Source: Octopus sinensis
Taxonomy: Eukaryota
DNA length: 64,000 bases
Direction: 5' to 3'
Assembly: GCF_006345805.1 (NCBI RefSeq)
Contig: NW_021835988.1
Span: forward strand, 391,142 to 455,141
The position numbers and the translations under genes were made by a program. The notes below the pieces were generated by a model. The model had not been told where the DNA came from, ran no database searches, and was given only the letters and a program-made list of their open reading frames with translations. This document shows, one piece after another, positions 3,364 through 59,487 of the stretch. How positions within the stretch are numbered: position 1 is the first letter of the stretch; each line of letters opens with the position of its first letter.

Positions 3364-4241
3364 CAGAGGTTTCCAAATGGGGAGGCGCGCCTCCCTAGGG
3401 AGGCGTTGACTCGTGTCAAGGGAGGCGCGAAAAGTATTTCAGAAACATTTTTTAGAAAATTATATTGAATAATGTCAAATTTGCCTATTTAGTTGACATT
3501 TTTGGGAAATTGAGTATATTGAATAAATCAATGCAGGGACCACAACTACATTTATTCTCTCAAAAGGACAAAATAAAAGCATTTATGAAAAAATTGGTAT
3601 TATGGAAATCAAATATACAAAAAAATATCTATGACATGTTTCCACTTTTAAACACCTTTTGCGCCATAGTGAACATTGAAGCAAACAAAGACATATTTGC
3701 TGAACATTTGGATTGTTTGTTGAAGCATTTTGCTCACTATTTTAAAGATCTCGACTGTAAAATGTTCGAATGGATACAGAATCCATTTATTGATGAAGAA
3801 GATAATCAATTTGCATTGACAACTTTTGAAAAAGAAATTGATAGAATTGTCATGCGATACATTATTGAAACAAAAATTTGAGAGAGAACCGCTAATTTCT
3901 TTTTGGTTGAATGTAAGAACGGAATATGAAATTTTGTCGAATAAAGCAATGAAAGTTTCTAGAGTCTAGACACTCTGGAAACCCTCCTAAACGAAATATA
4001 AGTAAAATTATTCTGAACAAACAAGATCAGAAATCTCACTAAATTACTATTAAATTTTCTGTTATTTTCATAATGTTCATGTTATTTTTATAATAAATAT
4101 TCGAACATGTCTAAACCTGGCCCTGACGAGGCCAAAAATTGTGCGCTAATACCAAAAAATGTTTATTTTATTTAAGGTGGTCCCCACAAAATTTTATAGT
4201 GCAAAAGTGATCCCCAGTCTAAAAAAGGTTGAGAACCGCTG
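3364..4241 (+). mobile_element. Chimeric, deleted hAT (Buster/ZBED8-like) remnant
   Basis: Left TIR cagaggtttccaaa; transposase C-terminal fragment FAYLVDIFGKLSILNKSMQG...WIQNPF...KQDQKSH*; right TIR ggttgagaaccgctg of a different family; flanks do not match. Confidence 0.85.
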
Positions 4242-4904: not shown

Positions 4905-5307
4905 AATAGAAGATCAAAATATTAGAAAAAATCAGAATAGTAGAAAAGATCCGAATATTATAAAAAAAATCAGAATAAACAATAAAATGTTAGAAAGAAA
5001 TAAATTTAAAAAAGTCTGTATAAATGCATATTAATTAATTGATAAAATGAATACAAATTCACTCGCAAAATATACTTTATACAAGATATTTTACCAGTAA
5101 TCAATTTAATTAATAGTCAAACAAATAAAAAAACGAAAATATTGTAAAAATTAAACATAAAAGCAAGAAAGAATAAAATAAGAATTAACTGCAAACATGC
5201 ACAACAAAAGAAAATAATATAACGTGCGTAATAATTTATCGTAGTTAATTCATAAATTAAAAAAAATTTAAAAATAAAAAAAATAAAATAAATAACATTT
5301 AATGTCA
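4905..5307 (+). repeat. Dispersed AT-rich repeat, copy 2
   Basis: High identity to 386-711. Confidence 0.9.
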
Positions 5308-5347
5308 AATTCTGTTTTAATTTATTAAAAAAATATGGAAAGCCAAA

Positions 5348-8284: not shown

Positions 8285-8540
8285 CGATAAGGAAAATTAG
8301 ATTGATAAGATAATACAACGAAGAACAACAATGAATGTGACAAAATTACAATAAAATTGAATAAATTGAAAAAAATTACACCACAACAACAACCTCTTAT
8401 TGCACTCATGCTGAAAATATGATTTCGAAAATACCATTATCGAATGATACTGTTCATCGACGAATTTCTGAAATGTCAGAAAATATTAAGTGTAAGTGTT
8501 TTAATTCTTCTCGAAACGTAAATTCAGAACACTATAAGAT

Positions 8541-10157: not shown

Positions 10158-12570
10158 CAGTGGTTCTCAACCTGGGGTCCGCGAGATTTTTCTTAAACTT
10201 TATTCAAATGTTTATATTTAATGATAACAATTTTAAGTTAATATATAATAGAATTAAATAATAATTAATAATATCTCTTTTAGATATATTATAAATTAAT
10301 AAATTTTAATATTCAATAATACTGAGGGGGCTAAATAAATTAATATATTTTAATATTCAATAATACTGAAGAGGCTAAATTACTTTAAAGCTGAATGTAA
10401 CGCAAGCAATCCGTTCGGCTGGGTTAATTTAGTTAACTAACAATTGTTTTGTTATTCAAATAAAAAACCTAATAAAGAAAAAAAAATGTAACTCAATTAT
10501 TTATAAAATCGTATATATATATTTTTTAGTAAAAGTTAATAAAATTTTTAAGCATTCTATTGATATGAATTCCTCGAATGTTATTAAGATACGCAAATAT
10601 AATCCTGATTATATAAAATATGGGTTTATTTGTATTGATAAAGATGGATTTGAAAGCCCAAAATGTGTTGTGTGCATGAAAATTCTGTCACACAATAGCA
10701 TGAAACCAACAACTCTTGTGAGACACTTGCGCACATGTCATCCCCATCTAATCCACAAAAATAAAGATTATTTTATTTCTTTGCGTAAAACGATGAAAAA
10801 TCAAGTATTGACTCGTTTGATACAAACTTTGCCTTCTGATAATTCGATGCTATTAGCATCTTACATGATTTCATTACGTATAGCGAAAAAAAAGAAACCT
10901 CATAATATTGCCGAAAAACTGATTCTTCCTTGTAGTAAAGACATAGTACGTACTCTTATTGCACTCATGCTGAAAATATGATTTCGAAAATACCATTATC
11001 GAATGATACTGTTCATCGACGAATTTCTGAAATGTCAGAAAATATTAAGTGTCAGGTTATTGATATTATATTATTTATTTTAACAGGTGGTAAAACAAAT
11101 AAAAACTTCATGCCATCAAAATTTCGCTATACAAGTTGATGAATCCACCGATGTAGCGAACTGTGCTCAATTAATAATATTTGCTCGTTATGTATATGAC
11201 GAAGATTTTAAAGAGGAATTTTTATTTTCCTATTCGCTTGAATCGACCACTAAAGGAGAGGATATTTTTCAAGCAATTTCTATGTTTTTTGACAGTGTTG
11301 GGTTATCTTGGAATAATGTATGTTGTTGCACAACCGATGGAGCTCCAGCAATGCTTGGCTTTCATTCTGGCTTTAGAGGCCAAGTTAGACTTGCTAACCA
11401 GGAAACGAAACATATGCATTGTATGCTACATCGATATGCACTTGCTGCAAAAACATTACCTTCAGATTTAAGATATGTTCTCGATGATGTCGTACATATC
11501 ATAAATTATATTAAAAAGAGTGGTTTAAATTCGCGGATTTTCAGACTTATCTGCGAAGAATTTGAAAAGAATGGAAAGGCTTTGTTATTCCACACTGAGG
11601 TGAGATGGCTATCTCGGGGAAACATTCTTGCCAGAGTTTTTTCTTTGAGGAATGAATTATCTGAATATTTTATTCGCGAAAACAATTCCAAATCATCGGA
11701 ATTTATTTCGAAATTAATGGATAGTTCATGGCTATCTAAACTTGCTTACTTGAGAGATGTCTTCTCTCGTATAAATTCACTCAACAAATCGCTTCAGGGA
11801 AGACGTGAAACAATAATTGATTTTTGGATAAAATTAACTTTGGTAACTGTTTCATATTAATTATTAGTGCTTGTTTGATGAAGTTAACACTGTGGAAAGA
11901 AAAAGTAAAACTAAATAATTTTACTATGTTTGAATCTTTTGAAGAACAATCTGTAAATATAGATGCATTTGAAATCAAAAAAATAACCGAACTTATTTAT
12001 GCACATTTAACATATCTTCAACAAGAAGTAAATAAATACTTTCCAGAATTGAACGAAATTGATTTGAAATTCATTCGTACACCATTCAGTGTTGATCCAC
12101 ATTTGGTCGATGAAAATATCAAAGAGGCTTTTATTGACATGATCAATAATTCAAACGCAAAAGATTTGTATGAAAAACTTGCTTTATCAAGATTTTGGTG
12201 CGAAATGTGTCAGCATTATCCTTCCGTAAGCGCAAATGCATTAAATTTGTTGCTTATATTCCCGACAACATATTTATGCGAACATGGCTTCTCAGCACTT
12301 CTCAATATAAAAAATAATCATCGCGCAAGACTGAATATTGAGGATGACATCAAGATTTGCTTGTCGACAACCGAGCCTCTTATTGAAAAAATTGCCTCGA
12401 AAGAACAATATCAACCTTCTCACTAATTTTCTCTATTGATTTAATAGTAAATTTTGTTTTTAGATAAGTAAAATTTTTTTGACAAAAAACTTAATAAATA
12501 TGTAGGGGGTCCGCGAAATTTTTCATTTACTCACAAAGGGTCCGCGGACAAAAAAGGTTGAGAACCACTG
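10158..12570 (+). mobile_element. Full-length hAT/Buster transposon; ZBED8/SCAND3-like transposase 10565-12426 with a tiny intron and frameshifts
   Basis: Perfect 16-bp TIR cagtggttctcaacct; BED finger (PKCVVC..RHLRTCH), DESTD, TDGAPAM, HCMLHR, TEVRWLSRG, TTYLCEHGFS; intron 11056-11086. Confidence 0.95.
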
Positions 12571-12960
12571 TACTAGAGGATGGCACGTTGCCCCGGATGT
12601 CAGTATGCATGTTGTTGATGATCCTATCCGTGGGGACCTTATCGAGTTGGTTGATGTAGATTATTATGTCGACTTGCCAACACTCTGTTGTAATCTAAGA
12701 CGGCTAATCCAAAGTTGACCGGGGGAGTCTTGCCCGAAGGTGAGGGTTTCTACTTCTTTGATGAGTCGAGCCACCTTGTAACAAAAATCAATGGTTGCTC
12801 AACATACCGTCATCGAATTTATGACTTCTCACATGACTATTTTGTCGTTAAGAATACGAAAGGGTGGTTTAATTGGATCCTCTCTTGGTTCGTCAACATT
12901 TATACGGTCGTCCGTATAGATGTAGTTAACAATGATGATTACCACCAAGTAGTTTTTCTT
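12571..12960 (+). other. Endogenous noda-like RNA virus fragment (protein A methyltransferase/guanylyltransferase domain)
   Basis: TRGWHVAPDV...DDPIRGDLIELVDVDYYVDLP, then after a frameshift TANPKLTGG...KINGCSTYRHRIYDFSHDY; DVDYYVD and Y-x-H-x-x-[WY]-D are noda capping-domain motifs as recalled. Confidence 0.75.
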
Positions 12961-13201
12961 AAAAAAAAGAAAAAATAAATAAAAACAAAAATATAAAGAT
13001 AAAAAAATTACAAATTTAAAAAAGTTTAAAAAAAAACAAATAAAAATTAAAAAAGAAATTACAAATTTTGAAAAATTAAAAACACCAAAAAAACAAAAAT
13101 AATTCAATAAATAAATTTAAAAAATAAAACAAAAAAATTTTGATGAAACAGGCCCTCCGCAGGAGCTAGGTCGCGGTGAGCGAAGCGAGCTGCCGAGCTA
13201 G
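12961..13201 (+). mobile_element. Helitron 3' terminal fragment
   Basis: 13139-13201 is the reverse complement of 40656-40718; ends CTAG followed by T; A-rich tract upstream. Confidence 0.85.
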
Positions 13202-13392
13202 TTTAAAATAAACCATTTTTGAACAAAAAAACATTGAAAAAAAATTTGGAAATAACGAAAAGATTTCTAACCATATTTGAGGATGAATTAAAAAGTACAA
13301 TTTTTCGGATGAATGCGTTTTTCACGTGATTCCAAACAAAACAAGAAAAATAGTTGATAGGAAAAGCGGTGAACAATTTAAGTCAAAAAATA

Positions 13393-13892
13393 TTTCATCT
13401 GTCTTACGCCTCCCCCAGCAGTCTCTTGTTTGCCGACAATGTTATTATGTCCGAAACTGGTATTCAACAAGGCGACCCTCTTGGGCCTCTTTTATTCTCA
13501 CTCGGTGCTGATCACATTGCCCGTCAATTGTCCTCTGAGGTCAACATTTGGTACCTCGATGATGTTACTCTTGGTGGGGCTTTGGAGATCGTCAAGAATG
13601 ATGTAGAAAAAATTATTTCTGGTTTTGCTTCCATTGGACTCGCTTTGAATGGATCCAATTCTGAGCTGATATGTTTGTCTGCGAGCCCTTCAGAATTCAA
13701 ACTTATTTTTTCCACCTTATCTCACCATATTGAAGACCTGTGCATCACCCAGCTTGATGACCTTATCATTCTGGGTTCTCCAATCAATAGCAAGTCTACT
13801 AGGAAGGCTTTATGTAACAGGCTCGAAGAATTGGAAACTCTATTCTCCCGCATTTCCAAACTTGAATCCCATTTAGGCCTTTTCTTGCTCAA
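13393..13892 (+). mobile_element. CRE-like RT fragment (second family)
   Basis: GIQQGDPLGPLLFSL...NIWYLDDVTLGG. Confidence 0.9.
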
Positions 13893-14156
13893 GATGCATT
13901 AAAACTCCTGATGAATTAAAGAACATTATGAACTATATTGAATATGTCGCGAGCGCGACGCGCACGCGAGCCGCACATATCGACTTTTTTAAAAGCTATT
14001 AAATGGAACAAAAAATATCAAATAACGTTAGTACCATTGAGATAATATTCCAATATATATAATATATAAAATCTATCTAATATAATTTATACGGCGTACC
14101 AGAATCATACAACATTTTTAATACCGTTGCACGCTTAGTTTCGTTTTGTTGTAACA

Positions 14157-15746
14157 ATGTCACAATCGAACCAAAGATGCTTTATTCAAGATCAATTTGA
14201 ATATCAGGAATTAAAGAAAGTCCTGTCTGGGGAGATTCCACAGACAGATGACAGATTCCGGAGACGAAGGCTTATTAAGAAAGCCGAATCTTTTGTGTTT
14301 ATTCAGGGACACCTTTATCTGAAAGATGGAAACATTAACAAATTAGTGATTTCGTTGGACGATACTAAACAAATGAGAATGCTTGCCGAACAGTTACATA
14401 AAATCAATCATTGTGGGCATAACGCATTGGAGAACCTATGCAAAGAACGATTTTTCATAATCAAAAGAGATATCATTCGTGAAGTTGTTTCGAACTGTGA
14501 CGTTTGCCGCTTTTCCACACCCCTTAAACAATCGGATTCTGAATTTCATGTTATTGCAGACAGACCCAACAGAAGATTTCAAATGGACTTAATAGATCTT
14601 AAAAGGCATTCATTTTAATGAAGTTATTTAATAGATTTAAGAATAATAATGACTCATATACGTGGCTATTAACAGTCATTGATGTATATAGCAAATATGC
14701 TATTACACGCAATTTAAAAAACAAATCAGGTGTAGAAGTAGCGAAAAATCTTGAAGAAATTTTTATGGACTACGGACCTTGTGAATTTTTTCAGTCCGAC
14801 AATGGAAAGGAATTTAAAAATTCCCACATTTCGAATCTTTTTGCGGAATATAACGTTAAACAAATCCATGGACGACCTAATCACCCTAAAAGTCAGGGGA
14901 TTATAGGTTTAGTCAGACGATTTCGAGATTTTTAGAACGGTTTAATCAGACAATTTCGAGATCTTTGTCAAAAATGATGTTTGAAGACCAGAACAAAACT
15001 TGGATTAAGCATATCAGGAAAGCGGTTTATGTGTATAATCTGACAAAACATTCTTCGACAGGTGCTATAAATAAAAACTATAATATAGATGAAACACCAT
15101 TTATGCGATATCGTGGAATACCTGGTTTTAATCCAATTGTCTATGATGCACAAGTTGATGACAACAGAGACGATAGTTTAATTCAAAAAAAATTTTTTTA
15201 GATTTTATAACTACTAATGATGAACCAGAAGTCGGCACAATGATTTTAAAAACGCATTCTTCGACAGGTGCTATAAATAAAAACTATAATATAGATGTGC
15301 GATATCATGGAATATTTGGTTTTAATCCGGTTGTCCATGATGCTCAAGTTGATGACAACGAAGACGATAGTTTGATTCAAGATAGAAAATATTTTTAGAT
15401 GTTGTAACTACTAATGAAGAGCCAGAAAAATCATTCGATTTTAATTTTGTTCCGGTTAATTTGGACTCGCGTTATTTCAAACGAATGAACAAAAGAATGG
15501 GTGTTCATCGTTCTAAGTACGATTTGAAAGCAGGAGATACTGTATACGTTATTTTTTGTTATTTCAAAGGCAAGAATTCAAAAAGATTATGGGACAAATC
15601 CATCTCTCAGATTAGAAAAATTTGAGAGCCCATATTCTTCACCTGTAAAAATCATTGAAAAGTTATCTAATAATTTTGTCATGATATGCACCAGGGAAGG
15701 AATGCATAAAAAGATACACTCAAAAAGACTTAAAAAGATTATATGA
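14157..15746 (+). CDS. Ginger-like (gypsy-type DDE integrase) transposase gene split by at least 5 tiny introns, with an internal ~200-bp tandem duplication
   Basis: H..NHCG..CDVC; FQMDLIDL|RF..WLLTVIDVYSKY; FQSDNGKEF; PKSQGII|ERFNQTI; introns 14606-14634 (GC-AG), 14907-14935, 15062-15088 and others; GC-rich TGT-starting end at 13945. Confidence 0.85.
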
Positions 15747-15773
15747 TTTTTTTGTTGGCTAAAAATTTTTTTG

Positions 15774-16420
15774 CAAGATGCATTAAAACTCCTGATGAAT
15801 TAAAGAACATTATGAACTATATTGAATATAATCAGTATCCTGATGACTTCACTGAAAATCGAAAGCGGACGTTACGCAGAAGATGTAAGAATCTACAACT
15901 AGTAAATGGAGAATTATTTTTTGCACATAATGGAAATTTCCGTACTGTTGTCTGCTCTTTTCAAGAAGCTAGAATTAACTCAATTTTAACTAAAGAACAC
16001 TCTATCGGACATCCAGGTGTTACCAAAATGTGCCATTTAATTTCCCAAAAATATATTGGTATCAGTCAAAAAGTTATTCGCCATTTTATATCGACTTGTG
16101 AATCCTGCAATCATTTCAACAGCCTAAAGACATGTGAAGATATTCGAATGATCACCGTCTCCCGTAAATTCGAAAGATTTATGGCGGATTGTGTTGATCT
16201 TAGGAGATATTCTGATCACAATAATGAATATAAATGGATTCTTAATGTGATCGATTGCTATTCAAAATTTGCATGGTCATTTCCTCTCATAAATAAGACA
16301 TCACAAAATATAAGAAATTCATTTAAAGATTAGTTTTACTCAGTTGGGCCATCAGAAAGTCTACACACAGATAATGGAAAAGAGTTTTGCAACTCACAAG
16401 TGTCAACATTATTACGTGAT
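15774..16420 (+). mobile_element. Second Ginger-like integrase, 3'-truncated with an in-frame stop
   Basis: HSIGHPG..CESC; FMADCVDL; VIDCYSKF; then LHTDNGKEFCN after the stop at 16331-16333. Confidence 0.85.
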
Positions 16421-16492
16421 TGGGTAATAAAGGCAATCTCGCCACGATTTGGTCGGTCCCAAAAAATGGCGAGATTTAGAGATTTGACTGTA

Positions 16493-16901
16493 ACCAAAAA
16501 TGCCCAATTTGAAACGTTTGAGTGTATTAAAAAAATGAGAATAGTAGAAAAGAATCAAAATAGTAAAAAAATCAAAATAAACAATAAAATACTAGAAAGA
16601 AATAAATTTAAAAAAATCTGTATGAATGCATATTAATCAATTGATAAAATGAATACAAATTCACTTGCAAAATATACTTTATGCAATATATTTTACCAGT
16701 AATCAATTTAATTAATACTCAAATAAATAAAAAAACAAAAAATTATAAAATTAAAACATAAAAGCACGAAAAAATAAAATAAGAATTAACTGCATACATG
16801 CACAACAAAATAAAATAATATAACGTGCGTAATAATTTATTGTAGTTAATTCAATAAATTAAAAACATTTAAAAAATAAAATAAATAACATTTAATATCA
16901 T
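16493..16901 (+). repeat. Dispersed AT-rich repeat, copy 3
   Basis: Includes the upstream ccaatttga..ttgagtgtattaaaaaa segment shared with copy 1. Confidence 0.9.
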
Positions 16902-17096
16902 CAATTTTTATTATTTCAGCTCGTCAATTGTAAGGGCAAAAAGAAATTCTTCAACAAGGATCCTTTTCTGTAAACCTACCACTAAAATACGATTTTGTCT
17001 TCAAAAAACAAGTTCGTTGAGCCATAGGAAAATGCCGGAATTTCCACATCCTTAGATACAAAATTGATGTCGTCAGCCCAAAATGATTATTTAAGT

Positions 17097-17604
17097 CAGG
17101 GTTTCTCAACATTTTTAGCTCAAGGGCCAAATCGATAATTAAGATTAGCTTCGCGGGCCGCACAAAAAATATTTTATATATTTTTATATTTTCCATTTTA
17201 CTAAATATTGATTCGCATAAAAATGTAGATTTATATATGCATTGTGTGTTATATTTTTGAATTTGTCATGAGGAATTAATTCGTAAAAATTAATAATGGA
17301 CGCATTTTTGAACAATGCCGCCAGTTCTATATCATGTTGTAAATTAATGAGTTCTAGTTGAAACTTAGCAGGCGCATCCTTAATTTCCACGCTGAATGGA
17401 GTTGCGAATATTTTCATTAAAGGAAGGAATTCTTTAAAATTCTAAAAATTAAATTTATATAAATGTACCCCAAAACGTGCTTCAAATTGATTAATTAAAT
17501 CACTAATTATGGATATGTTTAACCTTAAGAATGAATAATTAAATTTAAACATTATTAAAAAATTAAAAAAGTTACTCTAGAGGGGCCGCATTTGAGAACC
17601 GCTG
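17097..17604 (-). mobile_element. 508-bp non-autonomous hAT (GTF2IRD2/SPIN-like deletion derivative)
   Basis: TIRs cagggtttctcaac / tttgagaaccgctg; perfect 8-bp TSD atttaagt; remnant QFEARFG|NFKEF..ATPFSVEI..LELINLQ with a 27-nt intron 17442-17468. Confidence 0.92.
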
Positions 17605-18176: not shown

Positions 18177-18247
18177 TGCGCCTGCCGGGAATCGAACCCG
18201 GGTCGCTCGCATGGCAAGCGAACATGATACCTCTACACCACAGGCGC
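18177..18247 (-). tRNA. tRNA-Gly (GCC)
   Basis: GCGCCTG/CAGGCGC acceptor stem, anticodon loop TTGCCAT, GGTTCGATTCC T-arm; followed by a T6 Pol III terminator. Confidence 0.97.
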
Positions 18248-20173: not shown

Positions 20174-22106
20174 ATGGATTTAATTGAAGGAGCAAAATTT
20201 TACATAGATTTAATGCTTGAAGACGCCGGTCCCGGAATGAAGGCAATGCTATTCGATGCCAATACAGTAACAATATAAAACATAATTAAATTAGGCAAAA
20301 ATAGTAAGCTACATATATTCCCCAACGGAACTATTATACAAACAAGTATTTTTATTCGACCAATTAAAAAACCAAACTTGCGAGTCTCTATCTTTCGTAG
20401 TGGCCATAATTTTTGTGCAGCCGACCAATTCCAATTATAATTTAATCCTCAAAGAACTGTCAACCCCCCGATTTACACATTATGCAATATGTCCCCAATA
20501 TTTAAATATTTTAGATTTCTCAAGTTACTGTCCAACTGACTTTATCGAAGGGATTGCCATGGCAGATAACGACGAGAGAGTCCTGGCCCTCAGAGTATTC
20601 TTATCTGGGTTACTCCCTTAAGGAAATTTGCTTAGACTACTATGCCCATGGTCCTTGTCTCTTTACATTCAACATTGAGACATGTCATACGGTTGTAATT
20701 TAATTAATATTTAAAAATAGAATAATGGAGGTTGGAAAGGTGATTCATTTGAGCTTGTTTGTGGGGGATTAATGTCAGTGATCAATTCGTTGGGGCAAAA
20801 CCCCGAGATCCGTCATCAAGGCTCGTCCCCTCATTGTGCCAAAATATGCTATGAACTAAAAAATATGTTGGACATGCAGAACGAATCTTCTAAGGACTAT
20901 GATTCGCTGCTAGTCATAGTAGATCGGAATATAGACCCAGTGATCCCTGTCATCAATTCGGTCTCTTTAACCGAGTTCACTAGCATAGTGGACTTATGAG
21001 GCTATGATACACGAATTGGTAGGAATACACGACAATACGGTAAAATTGACACCGAAAGGCTCAAAGCAGATTGTAATAACATTAAATTCGGCGAATACAT
21101 TTTTTAAACAGGTTTTCTGGACGATATTGAACCACGTGTATAGAATCGGTTGCTTTTTTACGATGAAATTGTGTCCAACGTGTCCAGTTGTATAGAAAAG
21201 ATCAAAGGATTTAGCCAAGGCTTAACGGGGACTGAGTCATTGTCATATATGAAGGTTTTTTGGTTCAGCATGTTCAGGGATTTGTGGAAAAGTACACCAA
21301 ACAGAGGAAGTGGGTGGAAATGGTGACACAACACTCCGACCTTGTAGGCGAACTAACGAGAATAGCCACAGAAAACAGTCTGTTCGAGACTTCGCTTCTG
21401 GAACAGGACATTATTGCATCAAAATTAGATTTCTCTCAAGTTATGCAAGTATTTTTAGTTTTTTTACAATTTCTATGGCAGAAAGTTGGCAATTTGTTTG
21501 CCGATTGCCCGAATGTGACTGCCTTGGACACAATTCGACTGTCCTTGTTGTGTTTGATTAGATTTCCTGAGGCTGCCAACTATAAACTTGACATATTCAA
21601 CAAACATTTGCTCAAGCTGAACGTCTCTCCTCAAATGTATCAAATTCCGCAGTCATTTCAACGTTTTTTGAGCAAAAAGTCGAGTAATCGGACTGATGGG
21701 ACTATTTTGCGGTGGAGGGAGGCTTTGAAGAAGGCCTCCAAGTCTTATCAAAGTGACCCTGTCAATTTGTACCGACGCTACCGACCATATTTGGCTACCC
21801 TGCTTTCCGAGATTGCCGAAAACAGTCTATCACTAACTGACTTTCCAAGCTCTTTGCAATATAACCCGTTTTTTGGAAAGGATGTGAAGAAGGGAGCCCA
21901 AACTAAAGGGGGTTACTCAAAAGTTGTCGTATTTATTGTTGGAGGAGTCACCTATGCTGAGGCTGGAGTCCTGGAATCAGAAAATTGGCCTTTTCAGGTT
22001 ATTTTGGGAGGAACTCGAATTCACAATTTTGACACGTGAGTTGAGGGGTGTTATTTTATTTAGTTATTCCAAGGAGATAGTCAACATTCTTAGTTCGTCT
22101 GGATGA
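20174..22106 (+). CDS. VPS45: Vacuolar protein sorting 45 (Sec1/Munc18 family), 9 tiny GT-AG introns
   Basis: Spliced MDLIEGAKFYIDLMLEDAGPGMKAMLFDANT|AKIVS...DRNIDPVIP..|WTYEAMIHEL...VVVFIVGGVTYAEA...LGGTRIHN; introns of ~23-33 nt restore one frame. Confidence 0.93.
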
Positions 22107-22240: not shown

Positions 22241-23344
22241 TTAAACAAATTTTGAATTATAAATTCCTCTGAGGTCACTTAGAATATTTTCGAGTTGATT
22301 AAAAAACTCACATGACCCCTCATTTGATGAATAGCAGGCAGCCTTGTAAGTGTTTGATATTTGACTGCTAATGAATGTGATCATATCCTCAATCATGTTG
22401 AAGACATTTTTAAAGTCAAGGCTTTCATTGTGATGGGCCAAAACCGATTTCATATTGCACATCATTGAATTAAAATTTGCAAATTGTGCGATAATTTTTT
22501 TATGTCCTTGTTTTATTGATTTTTTCTTTTGTTTTGTGAGTTTTTTGATTTCCGTGTCCATATTTTTTAAGATTTGTGAGATCAAGACGTCATTTTTAGC
22601 GAAGGACCTTTTTCTTCTCACAACGAACTCTTGACTGAGATTAGAAGACAGTAGCGGAATCTCCTGCATTTTTTCAATATTTTTTTGAAGTGCCGTGTAC
22701 TGTTTTTTAAACTCAATTCGTATTTTATCAACAATCCTTGCTTCATTTTCTCCAAATAGAGCGAGATCTTCGGTTATTTGGACAGTTTCGAGCAGATTTT
22801 GAAGGTCGGTGGTTATCTTTTTGAAGCATTCTGTGTTTTTGATGTTAATTTTGAACAATTGTGAAGTTTCCGAACCCCATTTCTTCATGGTCAGCATACT
22901 TGAAGTTTTTGTTAACATTTTTCTAGTTTCAGTAAGTTTTTTCTCGATTGAAGATAAATATTTTTTATTTTTTTGTGCGCTTAATGAAGCTTCTGGAATG
23001 ATTTTGATAATATTTTCAAGCGATCGAATTATTTTGTCGACAATTTTTGAAAATTCAAATAAAAAATCATTTACTTCTGGTCGTTCGTCGAAATATTTAG
23101 CAAGTCCAGTATTTATTATCAAAATTATTTTTATGAAATCATCCATCGCACTCCGAATATTTAGTTTTGTCTCTTTTGGAATCAAATTTTGATTAGGGGC
23201 CGTTTCCTCGACCAATGTGTCGTATACGGTGTTGCACATGTCGTACAGTCCGTCATATATTCCGTCGTAGATTGGCTCGTTCTCTCCGTCTTCGAACATA
23301 TTTAATCTCACCATTTTTAATTTGTTTTCCAATTCTTCATCCAT
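22241..23344 (-). CDS. Intronless orphan, helical/coiled-coil 367-aa protein with an N-terminal EPIYD/YD cluster
   Basis: 1.1-kb open frame in AT-rich DNA, convergent with VPS45; no recognised family. Confidence 0.7.
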   Translation of the reverse strand: MDEELENKLKMVRLNMFEDGENEPIYDGIYDGLYDMCNTVYDTLVEETAPNQNLIPKETKLNIRSAMDDFIKIILIINTGLAKYFDERPEVNDFLFEFSKIVDKIIRSLENIIKIIPEASLSAQKNKKYLSSIEKKLTETRKMLTKTSSMLTMKKWGSETSQLFKINIKNTECFKKITTDLQNLLETVQITEDLALFGENEARIVDKIRIEFKKQYTALQKNIEKMQEIPLLSSNLSQEFVVRRKRSFAKNDVLISQILKNMDTEIKKLTKQKKKSIKQGHKKIIAQFANFNSMMCNMKSVLAHHNESLDFKNVFNMIEDMITFISSQISNTYKAACYSSNEGSCEFFNQLENILSDLRGIYNSKFV

Positions 23345-23589
23345 TGCGTAGCGCTGTGAGATGGATTTACTTACTTATAATATTAATTATAAGCTCGTAG
23401 GCAATTTAAGACATTCTAGTTACGAAAAATATTCATTTACCTTTTGGGAAAATAATTATTTTTTAGTTAACTACTATTTACAAATAAAATTATTAGCTTT
23501 CAGTCGGATCCCTTCTTTTAAGGATTTTGACGAAGGGGCCGAGGTTGTCTACTTTATGTGGTTTTTATTTTCAAGTTACTGGATCTTAA

Positions 23590-25746: not shown

Positions 25747-26375
25747 TTAGATTAGTAAGACATCATGCTCGTTTTCAATGTTTTTTAATAAATCTTTTTC
25801 AATTGTCAATAACCTGACCACAATGTCATTTTTGTTAATTTCTCCCTCATCATTTATATTTTCATCATTTTCATCTTCAATGTTTCCGCAATGTTCCATC
25901 TCTTCTATTGTATCATTTTCTGCATATTCATATGCAAGAAATTCTTCAATATCCAACGGATAAAAATATCTGTCCTTTCTATTGGTATACTATCTTCTGA
26001 TTTATTTTTCACGTTATCATTATTTAGAATTCCGAAACAATTTGAAATGGTTTGTTGCGATACATCTTCCCATGCCATTTTAACAAATATCACAACATTC
26101 TTTAATGTAAGGTTTTTGCAGGTTTGTGCTTATTGAAAAGCGTTTTAGAATTTTTTATGATTCCCAGGTCCATTGGCCGGACCAAGACTGTACTATTTCG
26201 CAATATAAACATGATTTCAATATTAGACAAATTATTAGGTATGCAATGGGAAGGACAATTATCCCGAATAAGTAAAATTTGTTTTTTCTGTATTTTAGAT
26301 TCAAATCAAAGTTTATTAGCCAATCTATGAAGATTTTCCTAGTCATCCAAGCACGCTGGGAGCTATAATATAAAA
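25747..26375 (-). mobile_element. pogo/Tigger (DDE_1) transposase remnant
   Basis: Across frameshifts: AWMTRKIFIDWL, DNCPSH, RPMDLGII, AWEDVSQQTISNCF, then an acidic tail. Confidence 0.85.
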
Positions 26376-27019
26376 TAAATGAATCGTAATATAAAATAAA
26401 TGAATCGTAATTGCCTCAAATGATTTTGAATCCATGAAACTGCATTGTGAAAGGATAGTCGAGGAACAAAAGAATCAAAAGACTATTCACCGTTTTTGGT
26501 TATCTACATTACATTACATCGAGAACGAATAGATTTGGATTTCTGAATTTTTTTCTATCTAGTTGTTTATTGAGGACTTGAGGAAGAATACTGGATTAAA
26601 AGTTTTTTTAATCGCTGGTGATTCAAACCGTAAACTTGATTCTTGTTATAACTCTTTAAATACAAATAGTGATATTTTTTTTAAATATGAGGCAAAACTG
26701 ACAGTGTCTTCATTGGAAAGTTGTAAAAATTTAAAATAATAAAATTAAAGTTGATCCCGTGTACAATTTAGCTTATTAATCTAAAAACCGATTTCTAAAT
26801 GTAAATTCGGATTTATAAAATGGACGTTAATTCAGAAAATAACGAACGATAGGTTAATAAAGTGTAATGCTAGACCTACATTTTGCTAACTTATTACAAA
26901 ATAATTATGATCACTTCTTGGAAATTTTATTATTATTAAATAATTTTATTTATGTTTCAAAAAACTATAAAAATAATAAATAAATTGATTTGGATCATTT
27001 CATACATACTCTCATACTC

Positions 27020-31752: not shown

Positions 31753-32069
31753 CAGAAAAATTTTAGAAGGCTAAAGTTACAAAGGTTTTGATATCACTTG
31801 CATCGAAAACTTCTCAATTTTATTGTTTTCAGACATACGAAAGATGTTCGAGGTTTAGGAAAATGAATTCATGTAAAATGAGCTGTATAAATCCAGATTT
31901 ATGGTATGAAATAAAGCAGTAATAAAGATAAAATTATATTAGGGCATATAACAGTAAATTGATAACGAGAAAAATATTTAAATTATTTATATTTCTAAGA
32001 ATACAGTCATAATTTTATTGGAATTTTGTTCGTGACACATTTATGTTTGACTTTAGCGTGAAAAAAGAA

Positions 32070-32963
32070 ATGATATGTCTCTATTTCTTATTAGGAGCGT
32101 TAGCATTTCAAACACTTGGTAATTTTAAATTTAATGTGAAATCTATGCATAGGCTATCCATGGGAATTGAAAATTTTTTTCGAAGACATCTCTGTTTGCT
32201 TTATAATTAATAACTATAGAGAAACGATGTTTTAACGACAAAACAAGTAATAATTTTAGCTATATAATAGGCTCTCTCTGATGTAATTGAAATAATCGAA
32301 CTTGATAGGAAGTCAAATGAATTAAATCACTTGGTTATCAAAATAGAGTTCGTGTTATTACTTTTAATCTTTCAAAGTAAAGACAACAAAATTATGGATA
32401 AAATATACACTGAGGATGAGAGTAAAGTAATATACGTAAAATACTACAATAAAAATGTATTTAAAATTAAATTTATATAGAAAATTCATGGAGCAATTTT
32501 ATATAATATATTAAACTTTTTTGGTTTGCCTGATTCAAACAATACAAATAGTATTATGAATAATACTTTGTGGTAATTCTATATCATTTTTATTTAAGTA
32601 ATCGACTATTGTCAAAAAAAGAGTTAAATTATCTTCGAAATATGAATCACCTTATAAATGACAGTAATCAAAAATTTATTTTTCCAGCAACTTTATCGCA
32701 TCTATTAAAAAGTCGAATAACACCAACAGAAAAGCCATTAGACAGCACACATCCTACTTCAAAATGTATATATTTATTATTATTTTGCAAATCGTGTTAT
32801 TCCTGTTAAAAATAATTTAAATTTGAAACCAATAAATGTGAAAAAATTTGAAATGCTTTATCTCATACCCATTTTCGTTGCACTTCTGATTATTTCGCTT
32901 ATTGCCGTCATTATAGTAAGAAAAAAGAGAAAATCGGCAAAATATGATAATTTAGAAGAGTAA
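32070..32963 (+). CDS. Orphan type-I membrane protein (~234 aa, 7 tiny introns): signal peptide, Thr/Pro stalk, TM helix, tail KYDNLEE
   Basis: Introns 32119-32152, 32194-32219, 32247-32270, ~32349-32378, 32457-32480, 32573-32598 and 32766-32790 give one frame: MICLYFLLGALAFQTLG...MLYLIPIFVALLIISLIAVIIVRKKRK. Confidence 0.75.
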
Positions 32964-33433
32964 TTTTAAATTCAAATTTTATTAATAGAAATCCATATTA
33001 CCAGGAGCCCCTAGTAAATTAAAACAATAATAATAAATTATTAATATTAACAAAGATTTTTTGGTTTTATGATTTTCATTTATTCTATAATCTTAGAAAC
33101 TTAGTTTATAATTGAAAATTACGATTAATTTCAAAATAAATTAGATTCTATTCACAATAAAAATTAAACTCAGAGGAAAACTATAGATAAAACATGCTGC
33201 AATTGCCATAGTTTTGAGAAAGTCTCTAACAAATTTGAAAATAACGTTCTAAAGTTCGTATCCATTAAATTCATACATTTTTTTCGATACATTTTTTCAG
33301 TTCTCAAATATCACAAGTCTAGTAGAAAAATTCAAATCATAGAAACCCAAAATAGAGTTATCTCTGAATCAACCAAAAAACAATTTTTCATTGAACATTG
33401 CATAGAGATTTGAGAAAGTTTTTGTTTTGCAGG

Positions 33434-36084: not shown

Positions 36085-38103
36085 CAGCGGTTCCCAACCA
36101 GGGGTGCCAGCAAAAATTTAGGGGGTGAAGATTTTAAAGATTTATAGTTAATTTTTAAAGAGCAAATATTTTTTCAAATCTGAAATCTATTATTTTTAGA
36201 TTATATTCGAAAAAATATATTATTATATCTAAGTTTTCAGATTGTCACGTTTATTATTTGTTGTTATGAAAAAGAGAAAGTAGAATGATGATTATGTCCG
36301 TTTTGGATTTACATATACTAAAATCGATGATCTCCAAAGGCCCAAATGTTTCTTATGTGAGGCTACATTCTCTAACCGGAATATGAAACCTTCCAAACTG
36401 GAACAGAACTTTATACATAAACGTGGTGGAACTAATAGTAGCGGCAATGATTTCAAATCTCTAAAAATAAAGAGAACTCGATATGATTCGTAAGTGACTC
36501 TTTAACTTTGTATATCTTGACAAACCGATTTTGCTGGCTTCTTATAAAGTTGCCAATAACATCGCAAAGTCTAAAAATCCACATACAGTCGGAGAAGATT
36601 TGATTAAAACATTTCATTGGAAATGGTCTCATTAATACTCGGAACAGAGTCAAGACAAAGGATTGAAACAGTCCCGCTATCCAATAATATAATTCACAGT
36701 CGGATATGTGAGTTAAGAAATGATATTTGTCCCAAATTATTACAGAGATCAAATCAAGTCCTTTCCTTATATCTCTTCAGTTGGACGAATCAACTGATGT
36801 CTCTAGTTAACATTGTTAAAGATTTTTTTATGAAACATGATTTGGATACCCAGACAATAGGGTCTATTTGTACAGACGGTGCTCCAGCAATGCTGAGAAA
36901 TATGTCCGGTTTTGGTGGGCTATTAAAGAATGAAATTCCGAACATAAGGACTACGCATTGTTTTCTTCATCGCTATGTATTAGCTGTTAAAACTCTCCCC
37001 CCATTGTTGAAAAATGTACTTGGCACCACTTTAAAAATTATTAACTGGATAAGAGGTCGTGCTATGAACCATCGAATTTTTAAAACAATTTGCAGTGATC
37101 TTGGCAACAATCATTCTATTTTATTATTTCATACCGAAATTCGCTGGCTCTCACGAGGTCAAGTTTTAACCCGCATCTTTGAGTTAAGAGAAGAAGTAAA
37201 ATTATTTCTTCATAAATATAATCATGATTTATTGCTATATTTGGAATCCCATGAATTTATCCAGATGCTGTCTTATTTTACATTTTTACTCACATGAATA
37301 ATTTGACTTTATCTCTTCAAGGTACAGATGTTAACATACTCAAATGACATGAAAAAATGGCTGCATTCAAAAATAAATTATCTCTTTGGCGTCGGCGAAT
37401 AGAAACATACAATGTCACGAATTTCCCAACCTTAGAAAAGGTGGTCGACAATTCAATGAATCCTACTTTTCGTAAAGAAATTATATCTCATTTAGAAGTA
37501 TTGTCCACGTCTTTTGAAGGATATTTCGGAAAGGATCTAAATATTACGGATGAATGGATTTTGAGTCCATTTTCGTATAATCTGAAAATTATGTCAGATG
37601 ATCATGAACTCAAAGAAGGTCTAATTGATCTTCGAACAAAACAAAGCACTTATAATTCAGTTTCACAATTGTACATTGGAACAGTTTAGGAGTTCAGTAG
37701 TGAAAATGTATCCAAAATTATCTCAAAAGGCTTTGTATGAAATTATTCCATTTGCAACGACATACTTATGCGAGTCAGGATTCAGCTCTCTTTTGGCAAT
37801 TAAAACTAAATACAGAAATCGCCTGAATCCTGAACATGACATTCGTATTGCGATTAGCAAAAAAATGCCAAGATTTGACAAAATCATTGAAAATAAACAA
37901 GAACAAAGAAACCATTAATTGTTTACTTTTGTTCTTGTGTGACTGTATACTTTAATTAATTTAAACTTTATTGTGTTTAATGTTAAATTTTTAATTTTTT
38001 CGATTAACAAACTTCTGGTTAAATAATAATATGTTCTGGGCGTGCGAGAGTTTGTACAAAAATATTTAGGGGTGCGAGCTCTAAAAATGGTTGGGAACCT
38101 CTG
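36085..38103 (+). mobile_element. hAT/Buster transposon with a decayed transposase
   Basis: TIRs cagcggttcccaacc / ggttgggaacctctg; TSD ttgtaaat / ttgcaaat; TDGAPAM, HCFLHR, TEIRWLSRG, TTYLCESGFS. Confidence 0.93.
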
Positions 38104-39248: not shown

Positions 39249-39689
39249 TTGTTTCTGTCTCTTCAAATGCTTTACCAGCATCGTACAAAGTTTCTTACAG
39301 GATTGGAAAATGTAAAAAACCAAACAATATCGGAGAAACTCTAGTTTTGCCAGCAGGTATCGATATGGTTGAAGTAATGTTTAGCGAATCCTGTGTGAAG
39401 ATATGGATTCAAAATATACATCGCATTTATACTATTGTGAGGTGACTGGCTATCTTGTGCAAAAGCGATTCGAAGAATGTTTGAACTCGAAGACTGCCTG
39501 TCTATTCGCTCGTCCTCTCAATCCAAGAATTAACGTGGATCATTTCATCAAGCAATAATTAAATTGTCATATTCTTTCTTTTCACTTTAAAAAAAAATTC
39601 GGATTTATAAAATGGACGTTAGTTCAAAAAATAACGAATGATAAGTTAATAAAGTGTAATGCTAGACCTACATTTTGCTAGTTAGTTAG

Positions 39690-40130: not shown

Positions 40131-41305
40131 AATAAGCAACATATTATTTAAAAAAAATTTTATATTTCGAAGAATAAAGTCATAATTTTATTGGAATTTT
40201 CGCATGACACATTTATATTTGACTTTAGCGTGAAAAAAGAAATGGTATGTCTCTATTTATTATTAGGAGCGTTAGTTTTTCAAACAATTGGTAATTTTAA
40301 ATTTAATGTGAAATCTATCCATAGGCTATCCATGGAAATTGAAAATTTTTTTTGATAACATCCCTGTTTGCTTTATAATTAATAACTATAGAGAAACGAT
40401 GTTCTAACGGCAAAACAAGTGATAATTTTTAGCTATATAATAGGCTCTCTCTGATGCAATTGAAATAACCGAAGTTGATAGGTCAAATAAATTAAATCAC
40501 TTGGTTATCAAAATAGAGTTCGTTTTATTATTTTTAATCTTTCAAAGTGAAGAAAACAAAATTATGGATAAAATATACACCGAGGATGAGAGTAAAGTAA
40601 TATACGTAAAATACCACAATAAAAATGTAATTAAAATTAAATTTATATAATAATACTAGCTCGGCAGCTCGCTTCGCTCACCGCGACCTAGCTCCTGCGG
40701 AGGGCCTGTTTCATCAAACAACTATAAGTTTATGTAGATGTATAAAACTACCTGGTTTAATGTAACCCTATTCTATCGCCTGTTGATAAACGATGTTTGT
40801 CGTCCGTCCTTCCTTGGCATATATGAATAAATTTTCTCTTCTGCCTACCCTCGAGCATCCCACATACAGCTGTCCATGTGAAAAGCACTCACTCTCTAAA
40901 AATAACCCAACTACCTTTAATGACTGTCCCTGGGCCTTGTTTATTGTCATTGCAAACTTTTTTTTCATTTTTGTGGTCTATTTTTTTATATTTAATTTTT
41001 TCATTTTTCCTTTGTAATTTCCTTTTTTTTCTTTTTTTATTTTTTTGTTTTTTACTGGCGGAAATGGGGCAGGGGGAGATGCGGCAGGCAAGAAAGCGAC
41101 ACACAAAAAAGATTTAATTAATTACCTTATTAAGCTGACCGTTTTTTCTTCAGCTTCGTTTTTCCTCCTTCGGTTATCTATTTAAAAAATTATTTTTGAA
41201 TAATAAAAAAGTTTAGGAAAAGAGGCATACCGAAAATAAATTCTATCTTTACGAAAAACTCAAGTAAATAGTTAATATTTTTACGCAAATTCTTCTGATT
41301 GCGCT

Positions 41306-41510: not shown

Positions 41511-41719
41511 AATCTGTGATTGCACATTCTGTCAAAGTCAAATATGATAATAGCTTTAATTTTGATTCATGGTCGATAATGATATATGCATTAATTTTAA
41601 AGAGAAAAACATAGGATGAATTGAATTTCTTTATCGCGAATAATTGGGAGTTCATCATTGTTAATATTCTCGCTGTCGTTTTCATCAAGGATATTCTTAA
41701 TACGTGAGATTTTTGCCTT

Positions 41720-43175
41720 GAAGGTTTTAATGGACCTCATCATGAATGTCGAGGACATTCGCGTTGTTCATTTTAATCAAAATGCAGAAAATAATTTTTT
41801 GATTTTTTGGGGGAAGGTTTTAAGGACTTCATCATGTAAGTCGAGGACATTGTAGTTGTTCATTTTAACCAAAATGCAGAAAATTTTTTTTTAATTTTTT
41901 TTGGGAGGGAAGGTTTTAAGGACTTCATCATGTAAGTCGAGGACATTGTAGTTGTTCATTTTAACCAAAATGCAGAAAATTTTTTTTTAATTTTTTTGGG
42001 GGGGAAGGTTTTAAGGACTTCATCATGTAAGTCGAGGACATTGTAGTTGTTCATTTTAACCAAAATGCAGAAAATTTTTTTTTAATTTTTTGGGGGGGAA
42101 GGTTTTAAGGACTTCATCATGTAAGTCGAGGACATTGTAGTTGTTCATTTTAACCAAAATGCAGAAAATTTTTTTTTAATTTTTTTGGGGGGGAAGGTTT
42201 TAAGGACTTCATCATGTAAGTCGAGGACATTGTAGTTGTTCATTTTAACCAAAATGCAGAAAATTTTTTTTAATTTTTTTTGGGGGGGAAGGTTTTAAGG
42301 ACTTCATCATGTAAGTCGAGGACATTGTAGTTGTTCATTTTAACCAAAATGCAGAAAATTTTTTTTTAATTTTTTTTGGGGGGAAGGTTTTAAGGACTTC
42401 ATCATGTAAGTCGAGGACATTGTAGTTGTTCATTTTAACCAAAATGCAGAAAATTTTTTTTTAATTTTTTTTGGGGGGGAAGGTTTTAAGGACTTCATCA
42501 TGTAAGTCGAGGACATTGTAGTTGTTCATTTTAACCAAAATGCAGAAAATTTTTTTTTAATTTTTTTGGGGGGGAAGGTTTTAAGGACTTCATCATGTAA
42601 GTCGAGGACATTGTAGTTGTTCATTTTAACCAAAATGCAGAAATTTTTTTTAATTTTTTTGGGGGGGAAGGTTTTAAGGACTTCATCATGTAAGTCGAGG
42701 ACATTGTAGTTGTTCATTTTAACCAAAATGCAGAAAATTTTTTTTAATTTTTTTGGGGGGGAAGGTTTTAAGGACTTCATCATGTAAGTCGAGGACATTG
42801 TAGTTGTTCATTTTAACCAAAATGCAGAAAATTTTTTTTTAATTTTTTTGGGGGGAAGGTTTTAAGGACTTCATCATGTAAGTCGAGGACATTGTAGTTG
42901 TTCATTTTAACCAAAATGCAGAAAATTTTTTTTTAATTTTTTGGGGGGGGAAGGTTTTAAGGACTTCATCATGTAAGTCGAGGACATTGTAGTTGTTCAT
43001 TTTAACCAAAATGCAGAAAATTTTTTTTTAATTTTTTTGGGGGGGAAGGTTTTAAGGACTTCATCATGTAAGTCGAGGACATTGTAGTTGTTCATTTTAA
43101 CCAAAATGCAGAAAATTTTTTTTTTATTTTTTTGGGGGAAGGTTTTAAGGACCTCATCATGTAAGTCGAGGACAT
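41720..43175. repeat. Tandem array of ~15.5 units of ~95 bp
   Basis: 16 tcgaggacat motifs spaced 92-96 bp apart; inner units differ almost only in homopolymer length. Confidence 0.97.
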
Positions 43176-53586: not shown

Positions 53587-55126
53587 ATGAAAATTTTCGT
53601 TATCATTTTAATTGTATTTTACATCGGATGCAACTATATAAATTTTCCTCGAATTTCAAGCGACGAACCTTTAATTCTCACTGACTACTTAAATAAAGGA
53701 CAGAAAGAATTGGCTAGGGAATTGAGCAGAGTTGAACCTTTTATAGGAAATGTTGAACTCTACGCAGGTTTTTTCAGAGTAAGCACTGAATGTGAAAGAA
53801 ATACATATTTCTGGTATTTTCCAGCAGAGGTTTAATTATTTTTTTGATCACAAAAGAACGGAAACACATCAGCACCCATTCTAGTTTGGTTGCAAGGTGG
53901 ACCCGGAGCCTCTTCGATATACGGCGCCTTTGTAGAAAATGGTCCCTACTTTATCAATTCAAACAACGAATGTAATTTAATTTTGATTAGCTTTACAGTA
54001 AAATTAAGGGAAATCTCGTGGACAAAAGAATTTAACGTTCTTTACATTGATAATCCTGTATATTTTAAATAATTAATTTCAGGTCGGAGCTGGGTTTAGT
54101 TTTACAAATCAAGAAGAATGTTATCTGACAAACGAAGAACAAGTCGGTTATTATTTAACAATGTAATCTTATCAAATTGACACGAGTTAGTTTCATGCAA
54201 CAATTTTATCTGCTTTTCCCAGAATTGAGGATTAACCCCCTTTACATTACTGGAGAATCTTATGCCGGGAAATATATTCCCGCGATGGTTTCTGCAATTG
54301 ATCAATATAACTGGAACAATCCAACGCCAATTAATTTAGTTGGAATGGCAATTGGAGACGGTCTTTGTGATCCTTATAATGTAAGTATTTTTTAGTTATA
54401 AAAAAGATGTTTGACTTCGGAACATATCTGTATAATATTGGACTTATTTTCGATAATCAAATTGGCAAATTTGATGATTTGAATTTTTTAGCACGTCAGA
54501 ACATTGAAGCTAAAAATTTTTATCGCAGCAGTGAGGTTCCTTTTATTGAATAAAAGTAGTATTTTGATAAAATATTTGACCTATTCTATGAACTAACTGG
54601 TCTTACTGACTATTATAATTATATACTCGACGAGGTTTTATTTAAATAATTTATAAGTTTAGGAAGTTCCTCATCAAAATTATGTTGATTTCGTGAACAA
54701 AAACTCTCGTCGATTAAACGCAGGAAATTTAACTTATTGTGACATTTGCGATCTTCCCTATCGGAAGCTATATGAAGATATCTCCAAATCAATGGCCCCC
54801 ACAATACAAAATATCCTCGATGCAGGCTATAAAGTAATTTAAATTATTATTATCAGACTCTCTTTTATTCCGGACAAGTTGACGTAATCGTACCTTATAT
54901 TGCGACCAGTGCATTTTTAAGAGAACTTAATTGGACTAGAAAAGAAGAATTTTCAAATGCTCCTCAACAAATTTGGTACTCGGCAAACGGTTCAAGAGTG
55001 AATGGATATTATAAAACTGCCGGGAATTTAATGCAGTTAATCGTGAGAGATTCTGGACACATGGTTCCAACGGATCAGCCAGAAGCAGGATTTGAAATGC
55101 TTAAGCTTTTCATCTATGGGTTCTGA
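53587..55126 (+). CDS. CPVL: Serine carboxypeptidase S10, vitellogenic-like, secreted; 8 tiny introns
   Basis: Signal peptide; PLILTDYL; WLQGGPGASS; YIDNP|VGAGFS; GESYAGKY; GQVD; SGHMVPTDQP. Confidence 0.92.
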
Positions 55127-59129: not shown

Positions 59130-59487
59130 AAAATAAACAATAAAATAGTAAAAAGATCGAGATAAACAAAAAATACTAAAAAGAAATAAATATAATTGGA
59201 AAAATCCATATGAATGAAGATTAATTAATCAATAAAATGAATAGACTTGCAAAATAAAATTTATCAATGATATTTTACCAGTAGTCAATTGAATTAATCT
59301 TCAAACAAATGAAAAAACAAAATATTATAAAAATAAAATATGAAAGCAAAAGAAAAAAATAAGAATTAACAACCAGAATCACACCACAAGAAAAAAATAA
59401 CGTATTTAGGACATGAGAATTTATTGTAATTAATTAGATAAATTTAGAACATTAAAAAAATTAAATCAATAACATTTAATATTGTCA
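59130..59487 (+). repeat. Dispersed AT-rich repeat, copy 4 (diverged)
   Basis: ttaattaatcaataaaatgaata...gatattttaccagtagtcaatt...catttaatattgtca. Confidence 0.8.

Follow-up and report, generated by a model that had tools for sequence, protein, structure and literature searches.

Introns inside transposase genes are known from several families of DNA transposon, including Ginger1, BuT2, and CACTA elements (PMC2836005, PMC3942097, PMC4158355). Their gain has been described for grass Mariner-like elements, one CACTA clade, and domesticated genes, and intron gain by tandem duplication is also known (PMC4158355, PMC3257199, PMC3443670, PMC4974935; for background only, PMC3488318, PMC13685798). 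Proven cases in which a new intron has a source are few; among 21 new introns in Daphnia, one could be traced to its source (PMC4974935). Introns shorter than 30 nucleotides (nt) can work with minimal splice signals, little beyond GT and AG, and among sequenced animals introns this tiny are reported for myxobolids and Dicyema japonicum only (PMC13644364). Here, we analyze a stretch of 64,000 nt filed under Octopus sinensis (assembly GCF_006345805.1, contig NW_021835988.1, positions 391,142 to 455,141; hereafter the window), in which three DNA transposon genes are interrupted by inserts of 26 to 31 nt: a Buster-type hAT transposase, a Ginger2-like integrase/transposase, and a fragment of another hAT transposase.

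We propose that these inserts are spliceosomal introns gained by long-resident DNA transposons, likely those of a dicyemid, and that at least one of them arose via local exon duplication. Taken as a whole, we judge this account to be probable. The predicted introns are labeled B1 and B2 (Buster), G1 to G5 (Ginger2-like), and S1 (hAT fragment), and their coordinates are given in Table 1.

The three elements resemble described systems in most respects other than their introns. The Ginger2-like gene shares with Ginger1 and Ginger2 a gypsy-like integrase with H2C2 and DDE domains, a TGTNR end, and an AT-rich target (PMC2836005); it differs in having five distinct intron sites (seven introns), all of 26 to 29 nt, no OTU/Ulp1 tail, and a missing right end. 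The Ginger2 table of that source gives no intron numbers (PMC2836005). The Buster element has the transposase of about 600 amino acids (aa), the short inverted repeats, and the TA-centered flanks of its group, and its protein is 45% to 64% identical to most relatives among the matches listed, yet it carries two coding introns that are absent in all relatives examined. Buster3 is described as having only a 5′ untranslated region (UTR) intron and ZBED5 as having two 5′ UTR/coding introns, and both are domesticated genes (PMC3257199). As in grass Mariner-like and CACTA elements, the introns here appear to have been gained inside transposase genes of mobile families; those gains are reported as rare against loss or limited to one region (PMC4158355), whereas here at least two superfamilies are affected within 64 kb, the size is tiny and host-specific, and one source is visible. 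Introns under 30 nt, minimal splice signals, and a repeat-rich, AT-rich genome are shared with D. japonicum and the myxobolids, whose main-text accounts deal with host-gene introns and their shortening rather than with gain in transposons (PMC13644364, PMC6736024). The literature searched, which comprised main texts and few subscription papers, yielded no paper describing intron-bearing transposons in dicyemids or mobile Busters with introns in their coding sequence.

Inserts Resembling Host Introns

A sequence-only reading of the window had proposed eight tiny introns in these genes. Their coordinates and ends were confirmed on the sequence, and each was compared with homologous proteins by a protein-to-DNA spliced aligner written for this analysis, along with a control run in which splicing was switched off to measure the net extra DNA. 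Seven of the eight were confirmed by homology. The exception, G4, lies in a poorly conserved linker where the aligner found the donor and not the acceptor, and what speaks for it is the restored frame. Two further introns had been overlooked; they are held by an internal duplication of about 200 nt in the Ginger2-like gene. The resulting ten comprise eight GT-AG introns, one GC-AG intron, and B2, which has CT-AG ends. Their removal restores both collinearity with homologs and the reading frame (for G4 and the two duplicates, the evidence is frame or duplication only).

B1 was recovered with the homolog P0002, and with splicing off its net extra DNA equaled the proposed length in 6 of 9 comparisons. 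G1, G2, G3, and G5 were recovered exactly with both full-length homologs (P0121 and P0122), and the Ginger2-like introns matched the proposed length in 7 of 8 comparisons. S1 was called in 63 of the 64 homologs that extend across its site, 74 of 138 homologs stopping short of it, and matched in 4 of 8; the misses in these three sets of comparisons had distant or offset anchors. At B2, the net extra DNA was 29 nt in 9 of 9 comparisons, which is the 30-nt insert minus a 1-nt deletion just upstream. Left unspliced, the Ginger2-like gene meets a stop at codon 154, and 5 of the 7 removals shift the frame.

GT-AG or GC-AG ends are found in 6 of the 7 homology-fixed inserts. Such ends appeared in 2% to 4% of trials when each insert was shuffled, for a joint chance of about 6 × 10−10. 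The ten transposon introns have a median length of 28.5 nt, as against 27 nt (range 23 to 33 nt) for 15 host introns. The latter were predicted with a de novo parser in the VPS45-like and serine carboxypeptidase genes of the window, leaving out the NOG1 and ubiquitin-protease genes and excluding 1 of 16 calls, a doubtful one of 40 nt in the carboxypeptidase. Across the 38,907 codons of 80 other Buster loci, the aligner's background came to 4 canonical calls of 20 to 35 nt, or 15 calls when every type is counted. The inserts are likely U2-type spliceosomal introns of the dicyemid size class, as judged from their ends, lengths, and positions.

The departure of B2 from the canonical ends can be read with the help of the paralog P0001, in which this site is taken up by a separate 10-residue read-through, at least six nucleotide changes away from the window copy. 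Since that read-through is preceded by a Lys codon, the intron in P0001 must begin with a purine. B2 is most likely a GT-AG intron that decayed when its G mutated in the broken window copy. Reading it as a 25-nt GT-AG intron, or as any 29-nt GT-AG intron, was rejected, since neither yields an open frame. B2 is common to these two diverged Buster copies; it would thus be older than their split, meaning that intron-bearing elements have spread.

An Intron With a Probable Source

G2 is nearly a copy of the exon stretch that follows the catalytic Glu codon just downstream. The two are identical at 24 of 27 positions, with a score of 39 against a maximum of 24 in 3,000 shuffles (P ≤ 0.0003, or roughly 0.008 when corrected for 25 tests), and G2 was the only one of the 25 introns tested to show such likeness. 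In the same shuffle test, no flank likeness was found for the other nine transposon introns (P = 0.15 to 0.98) or for the 15 host introns, and a flank origin was rejected for B1, B2, G1, G3, G4, G5, S1, and the two duplicates, despite a suggestive look in some of them. The three differences between G2 and the exon are transitions. In an exonic reading, two of them would change conserved amino acids, a pattern expected when the intron copy is free to drift and the exon stays constrained. Among the transposon introns, G2 also has the lowest AT content (AT fraction of 0.66 versus 0.77 to 0.89), which fits a young age.

We consider it likely, from this resemblance, that G2 arose by a short local duplication of the adjacent exon. 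A 33-nt tandem duplication could have been followed by loss of 4 nt from the first copy, or a single templated repair insertion could have produced the whole; the sequence fits both routes equally, and either would leave the spliced protein unchanged. The described duplication-born intron likewise copies adjacent coding DNA and leaves the protein unchanged. G2 differs from it in that the whole intron is 29 nt long and stands in a transposase beside the catalytic Glu codon, and in that a duplicated AGGT is not the origin of its splice sites, which instead require the copies to be offset by 4 nt.

Gain or Inheritance

Introns at the same positions in homologs from other species had been named as the outcome that would refute gain. 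For Buster, we found none: both inserts are absent in 18 of 18 distant Buster proteins, and among 80 metagenome loci, those spanning the sites in one alignment had an insert in 0 of 69 cases for B1 and 0 of 65 for B2 (11 and 15 loci, respectively, do not span them). The closest of these loci, L048, has a small frameshift at B1 and no insert. Neither site is interrupted in eight full-length Buster cluster members with open reading frames (ORFs) of 599 to 613 aa; five of these members lie on contigs of 59 to 464 kb. A quick tree was built from the two window rows and 36 database rows (33 of the 120 matches listed, chosen by rank and named source, plus three cluster members). It pairs the window Buster with P0001 (support of 100), places them beside a clade including Palaemon rows (88), and nests them among insert-free rows. 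With relatives insert-free and the tree position nested, it is simplest to suppose that B1 and B2 were gained in this lineage, and we regard this as likely.

Two side observations concern the same family. The metagenome locus L022, free of frameshifts and stops, contains a plausible GT-AG intron of 58 nt at another position (near query residue 86), so Buster introns may occur elsewhere. In the quick tree, the intron-bearing Buster has its nearest named relatives among decapods (Palaemon, Macrobrachium, and Petrolisthes). Octopuses eat decapod crustaceans, and an old horizontal transfer is possible.

The comparison for the Ginger2-like gene draws on fewer outgroups: two Logan proteins (P0121 and P0122), continuous at G1, G2, G3, and G5, whose contigs may be spliced mRNA, and one truncated paralog without G1. 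This paralog is the neighboring integrase, and it is uninterrupted at the position equivalent to G1, as the sequence-only reading had observed; it breaks off at the G2 site. A search with the Ginger N-terminal region gave no matches among 184 candidates, and no relatives were found in viral contigs. A core search gave 5 matches among 54 candidates, 2 of which are the full-length family members, and an Atlas search with P0122 returned only unnamed or KRBA2-like integrase clusters. Of 24 sequencing-run rows searched for the Ginger stretch, 9 contain it in whole or in part, with no RNA run listed among them; these shares speak neither for nor against splicing. The Ginger2-like introns, too, were likely gained in this lineage, judging by these outgroups, with the adjacent exon source arguing specifically for G2; gain at the four other sites and of S1 is assumed.

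The introns of the Ginger2-like gene and the hAT fragment might instead have come from an intron-bearing ancestor and shrunk to host size. Ginger1 transposases have one to four introns, including a GC-AG one (PMC2836005), a five-exon hAT has been described (PMC3942097), and the N-terminal and viral-contig searches gave no genomic relative of the Ginger2-like gene to set against such an ancestry. We nevertheless regard inheritance as unlikely: it fails for Buster, whose relatives are insert-free, it does not account for G2 as a copy of its own exon, the integrase paralog in the window is without G1, and P0121 and P0122 are continuous at the four sites noted above.

Elements Without Introns and the Question of Benefit

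The claim that all DNA transposon families here carry introns did not hold. Three of the 12 DNA transposon remnants in the window have them, and the other nine, many of them short, have none. One of the nine is a near-full-length decayed Buster of another clade, in which host intron density would predict about nine. No intron was found in the hAT pieces at 1057-1288, 3465-3954, 39269-39400, and 44288-45114 or in the integrase at 15778, and visual inspection of three reading frames showed none in the third integrase remnant or in the pogo-like and Merlin-like ones. At 3813-3834, a GC-AG call of 22 nt was rejected, as it came from one poorer homolog and a better homolog shows a frameshift. The pogo-like remnant (about 26365-26410, minus strand) contains a 21-nt stretch that is perfectly duplicated in tandem and in frame and lacks GT-AG ends; raw events of this type could turn into an intron.

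The sequence-only reading was right that the long interspersed nuclear elements (LINEs) lack introns: their ORFs of 982, 763, and 439 aa are uninterrupted, and 13 paralog alignments gave no intron call. LINEs are copied via spliced RNA, and their lack of introns is expected because retrotransposition passes through that stage. The names LINE, pogo, and Merlin, as applied in the window, are working labels guided in part by Pfam matches.

It had also been suggested that the introns might aid export, help escape from silencing, or place transposition under host splicing control. Transposase introns as such had already been described (PMC2836005, PMC4158355, PMC3942097), and we found no evidence for any of the three roles. 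Adaptive gain of this kind, including host control by retention as in the P element third intron, a precedent cited in PMC4158355, would be favored by G1, whose weak GC donor precedes the catalytic core; with G1 retained, translation would end at codon 154 and yield just the N-terminal zinc-finger part. The Ginger2-like intron density also matches the host level, at 5 in about 400 codons against 6.5 expected. Adaptive gain is still rather unlikely in our view, given nine intronless remnants that include a near-full-length Buster, a window Buster with 2 introns against 9.7 predicted from host density, intron sites that are scattered along the gene, and a G2 that resembles a mutational accident.

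A Proposed Route to New Introns

If the inserts are gained introns, a duplication or repair insertion of 25 to 35 nt with GT and AG ends would be spliced out at once and could fix by drift, sparing the gene; such a duplication can fix because the host splices introns of about 23 to 33 nt that need little more than GT and AG (PMC13644364). Older introns would drift to AT-rich sequence and lose the trace of their source. Elements copied as DNA would keep and spread their introns, and LINEs, copied from spliced RNA, would lose them every cycle. Intron load should then rise with residence time; the window elements have 0, 2, and 5 sites. Intron birth would be near neutral on this route, with no need for a regulatory role. 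That gain is ongoing, as had been claimed, is backed by a single young-looking intron, G2.

A bolder version is that the tiny minimum intron size of dicyemids turns local duplications of 25 to 35 nt into introns directly and that multi-copy DNA transposons record a datable series, from an intronless newcomer (the Buster at 36 kb) through the two-intron Busters to Ginger2 at host density with the newborn G2. We offer this version tentatively, inclining somewhat against it.

Several points weigh against the proposal that the inserts are gained introns. The intron reading is drawn from DNA and homology in a single 64-kb window. B2 has no GT donor in the window copy, a source is visible for only 1 of 10 transposon introns, and the absence of G2 in relatives rests on two Logan proteins that are possibly mRNA-derived. 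The Buster tree is a quick one, and its sister grouping has a support of just 88%. The internal duplication of the Ginger2-like gene has 89% column identity overall, yet G3 and its duplicate are identical, which could be due to chance, conversion, or constraint; both are also in frame and stopless and could be translated. The host identity discussed below is argued from intron size, the scaffold context of the Buster matches, and the P0010 insert.

The lack of a GT in B2, the reliance on DNA and homology, the broken state of the Buster and hAT copies, and the perfect, unspliced duplication in the pogo-like remnant could alternatively mean that no insert was ever spliced and that all of them reflect mutational decay of dead elements or faults of the assembly. 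We hold this to be very improbable in light of GT/GC-AG ends in 6 of 7 inserts, narrow host-like lengths, an intact Ginger2-like ORF, a B2 common to a diverged paralog, and a G2 with 3 mismatches to its template in 27 positions, which does not resemble assembly stutter.

The Likely Host

The contig is that of an AT-rich, transposon-rich eukaryote, with a GC content of 26% to 45% per 2 kb and a few host genes in the window (VPS45-like, NOG1, and serine carboxypeptidase). The NOG1 gene has a 27-nt intron that corresponds to a 9-residue insert against the solved NOG1 structure. The top Buster matches, 91% and 94% identical and labeled Octopus sinensis, are on scaffolds of 854 and 669 kb and are fused to unrelated host domains. 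In the protein P0010, an IFT70 part has an 8-residue insert resembling a read-through tiny intron. The published D. japonicum sample came from octopus renal sacs, with O. sinensis used as the host reference, and in that genome the GC content is 36.7%, repeats make up 49%, and a gene has 6.2 introns on average (PMC6736024).

The genome is likely that of a dicyemid, an octopus kidney parasite, and the octopus assembly likely contains parasite contigs. P0001 and P0010, both RefSeq proteins with the Octopus sinensis label, look like dicyemid sequence in which tiny introns were read through and genes falsely fused.

The Elements and Their Surroundings

The Buster transposase has a BED finger, a DDE core, and a hAT dimerization region (both Pfam matches being slightly below the cut-off), 300 matches with ZBED5/FAM200-like names, and 330 identities in 591 aligned residues with P0002. 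The target-site duplication of Buster elements is 8 bp with a central TA. In the window copy, both 8-nt flanks have the central TA and agree at 3 of 8 positions, so no duplication was found, and a recombined or rearranged copy is the likely explanation of the mismatch. A 103-nt piece at 8395-8497, just upstream of the 982-aa LINE ORF, is 99% identical to Buster 10953-11055 and has the same frameshift, so that the frameshift is likely real and local templated copying occurs in the window.

The Ginger2-like element has an H2C2 finger and a DDE integrase core with no reverse transcriptase alongside, following the definition in PMC2836005, and we file it as Ginger2-like by its domains and putative left terminus, not by clade placement. 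No right end is present in the window, and neither paired inverted repeats nor a 4-bp target duplication was found there. The insertion site is a short copy of the start of the neighboring integrase gene, and the target fits RTATAY at 5 of 6 positions. The first 55 nt or so of that integrase gene are present twice, at 13890-13944 and 15774-15829, flanking the element, and the locus, with its missing right end, is a rearranged nested insertion. An AT-rich repeat dispersed in five copies (374-722, 4963-5319, 16565-16912, 59153-59496, and 63489-63821) truncates this second integrase with one of them.

The hAT fragment had been called SPIN-like in the sequence-only reading; its best matches, 34% to 44% identical, are all unnamed.

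Elsewhere in the window, a 368-aa intronless ORF (22241-23347, minus strand) lies between host genes and has no Pfam match above the cut-off and no Atlas match. A small multi-exon gene appears to be duplicated with 90% to 95% identity (32014-33004 versus 40186-40649 plus 43287-43877), its second copy being interrupted by a piece that is presumably Helitron-like and by a tandem array of about 16 units of 94 to 96 nt (41690-43180). There is a tRNA-Gly(GCC) gene at 18177-18247 on the minus strand.

Table 1. Coordinates of the elements, genes, and predicted introns in the window
Feature	Positions	Strand	Details
Buster-type hAT element, defective copy	10158..12570	+	16-nt identical terminal inverted repeats, 10158-10173 / 12555-12570
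Buster transposase gene	10565..12426	+	about 600 codons; two predicted introns; frameshifts near 10963 and 11825
Intron B1 (predicted)	11056..11086	+	31 nt, GT-AG, phase 0, CAG/GT at both ends
Intron B2 (predicted)	11838..11867	+	30 nt, CT-AG in window copy
Putative left terminus of Ginger2-like element (TGTNR)	13945..13949	+	terminus rule from PMC2836005
Ginger2-like integrase/transposase gene	14157..15746	+	464 aa, stop-free after removing 7 introns
Intron G1 (predicted)	14606..14634	+	29 nt, GC-AG, phase 2
Intron G2 (predicted)	14907..14935	+	29 nt, GT-AG, phase 1; near copy of exon 14940-14966
Exon stretch right after catalytic Glu codon	14940..14966	+	likely template of G2
Intron G3 (predicted)	15062..15088	+	27 nt, GT-AG, phase 1, in frame, no stop
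Intron G4 (predicted)	15176..15201	+	26 nt, GT-AG, phase 1; frame restoration alone
G3 duplicate (identical)	15268..15294	+	inside internal duplication
G4 duplicate (diverged)	15370..15398	+	29 nt; inside internal duplication
Intron G5 (predicted)	15542..15569	+	28 nt, GT-AG, phase 0
Second integrase, same kind, truncated	15778..16430	+	one in-frame stop; remaining part intronless
Internal fragment of another hAT transposase	17182..17546	−	32% to 40% identity to unnamed homologs across aligned fragment
Intron S1 (predicted)	17442..17468	−	27 nt, GT-AG, phase 0, contains in-frame stop
VPS45-like gene (host control)	20174..22039	+	8 predicted introns, 23-33 nt
Near-full-length decayed Buster, other clade	36269..37915	+	aligned over 543 codons with 6 frameshifts and 3 stops; no intron called
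Serine carboxypeptidase gene (host control)	53587..55126	+	8 predicted introns, all 23-28 nt except for a doubtful 40-nt call

Implications

For annotation, the practical point is that tiny introns break transposase ORFs, and parasite-derived protein models labeled Octopus sinensis could yield false octopus genes or false calls of horizontal transfer. The origin of most new introns is unsettled, and G2, at 29 nt and still matching the adjacent exon, would add a source case. Transposons with intronless relatives offer a known ancestral state and many copies of differing age, from which the rate and mechanism of gain could be measured in one small genome. If the tentative version holds, in which duplications become introns directly and transposons keep a datable record, the window would offer a natural experiment in how, and how fast, introns are born, and the LINEs would serve as its built-in zero control. 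The Buster gains, together with a sourced 29-nt intron, would make this a good system for measuring intron birth.

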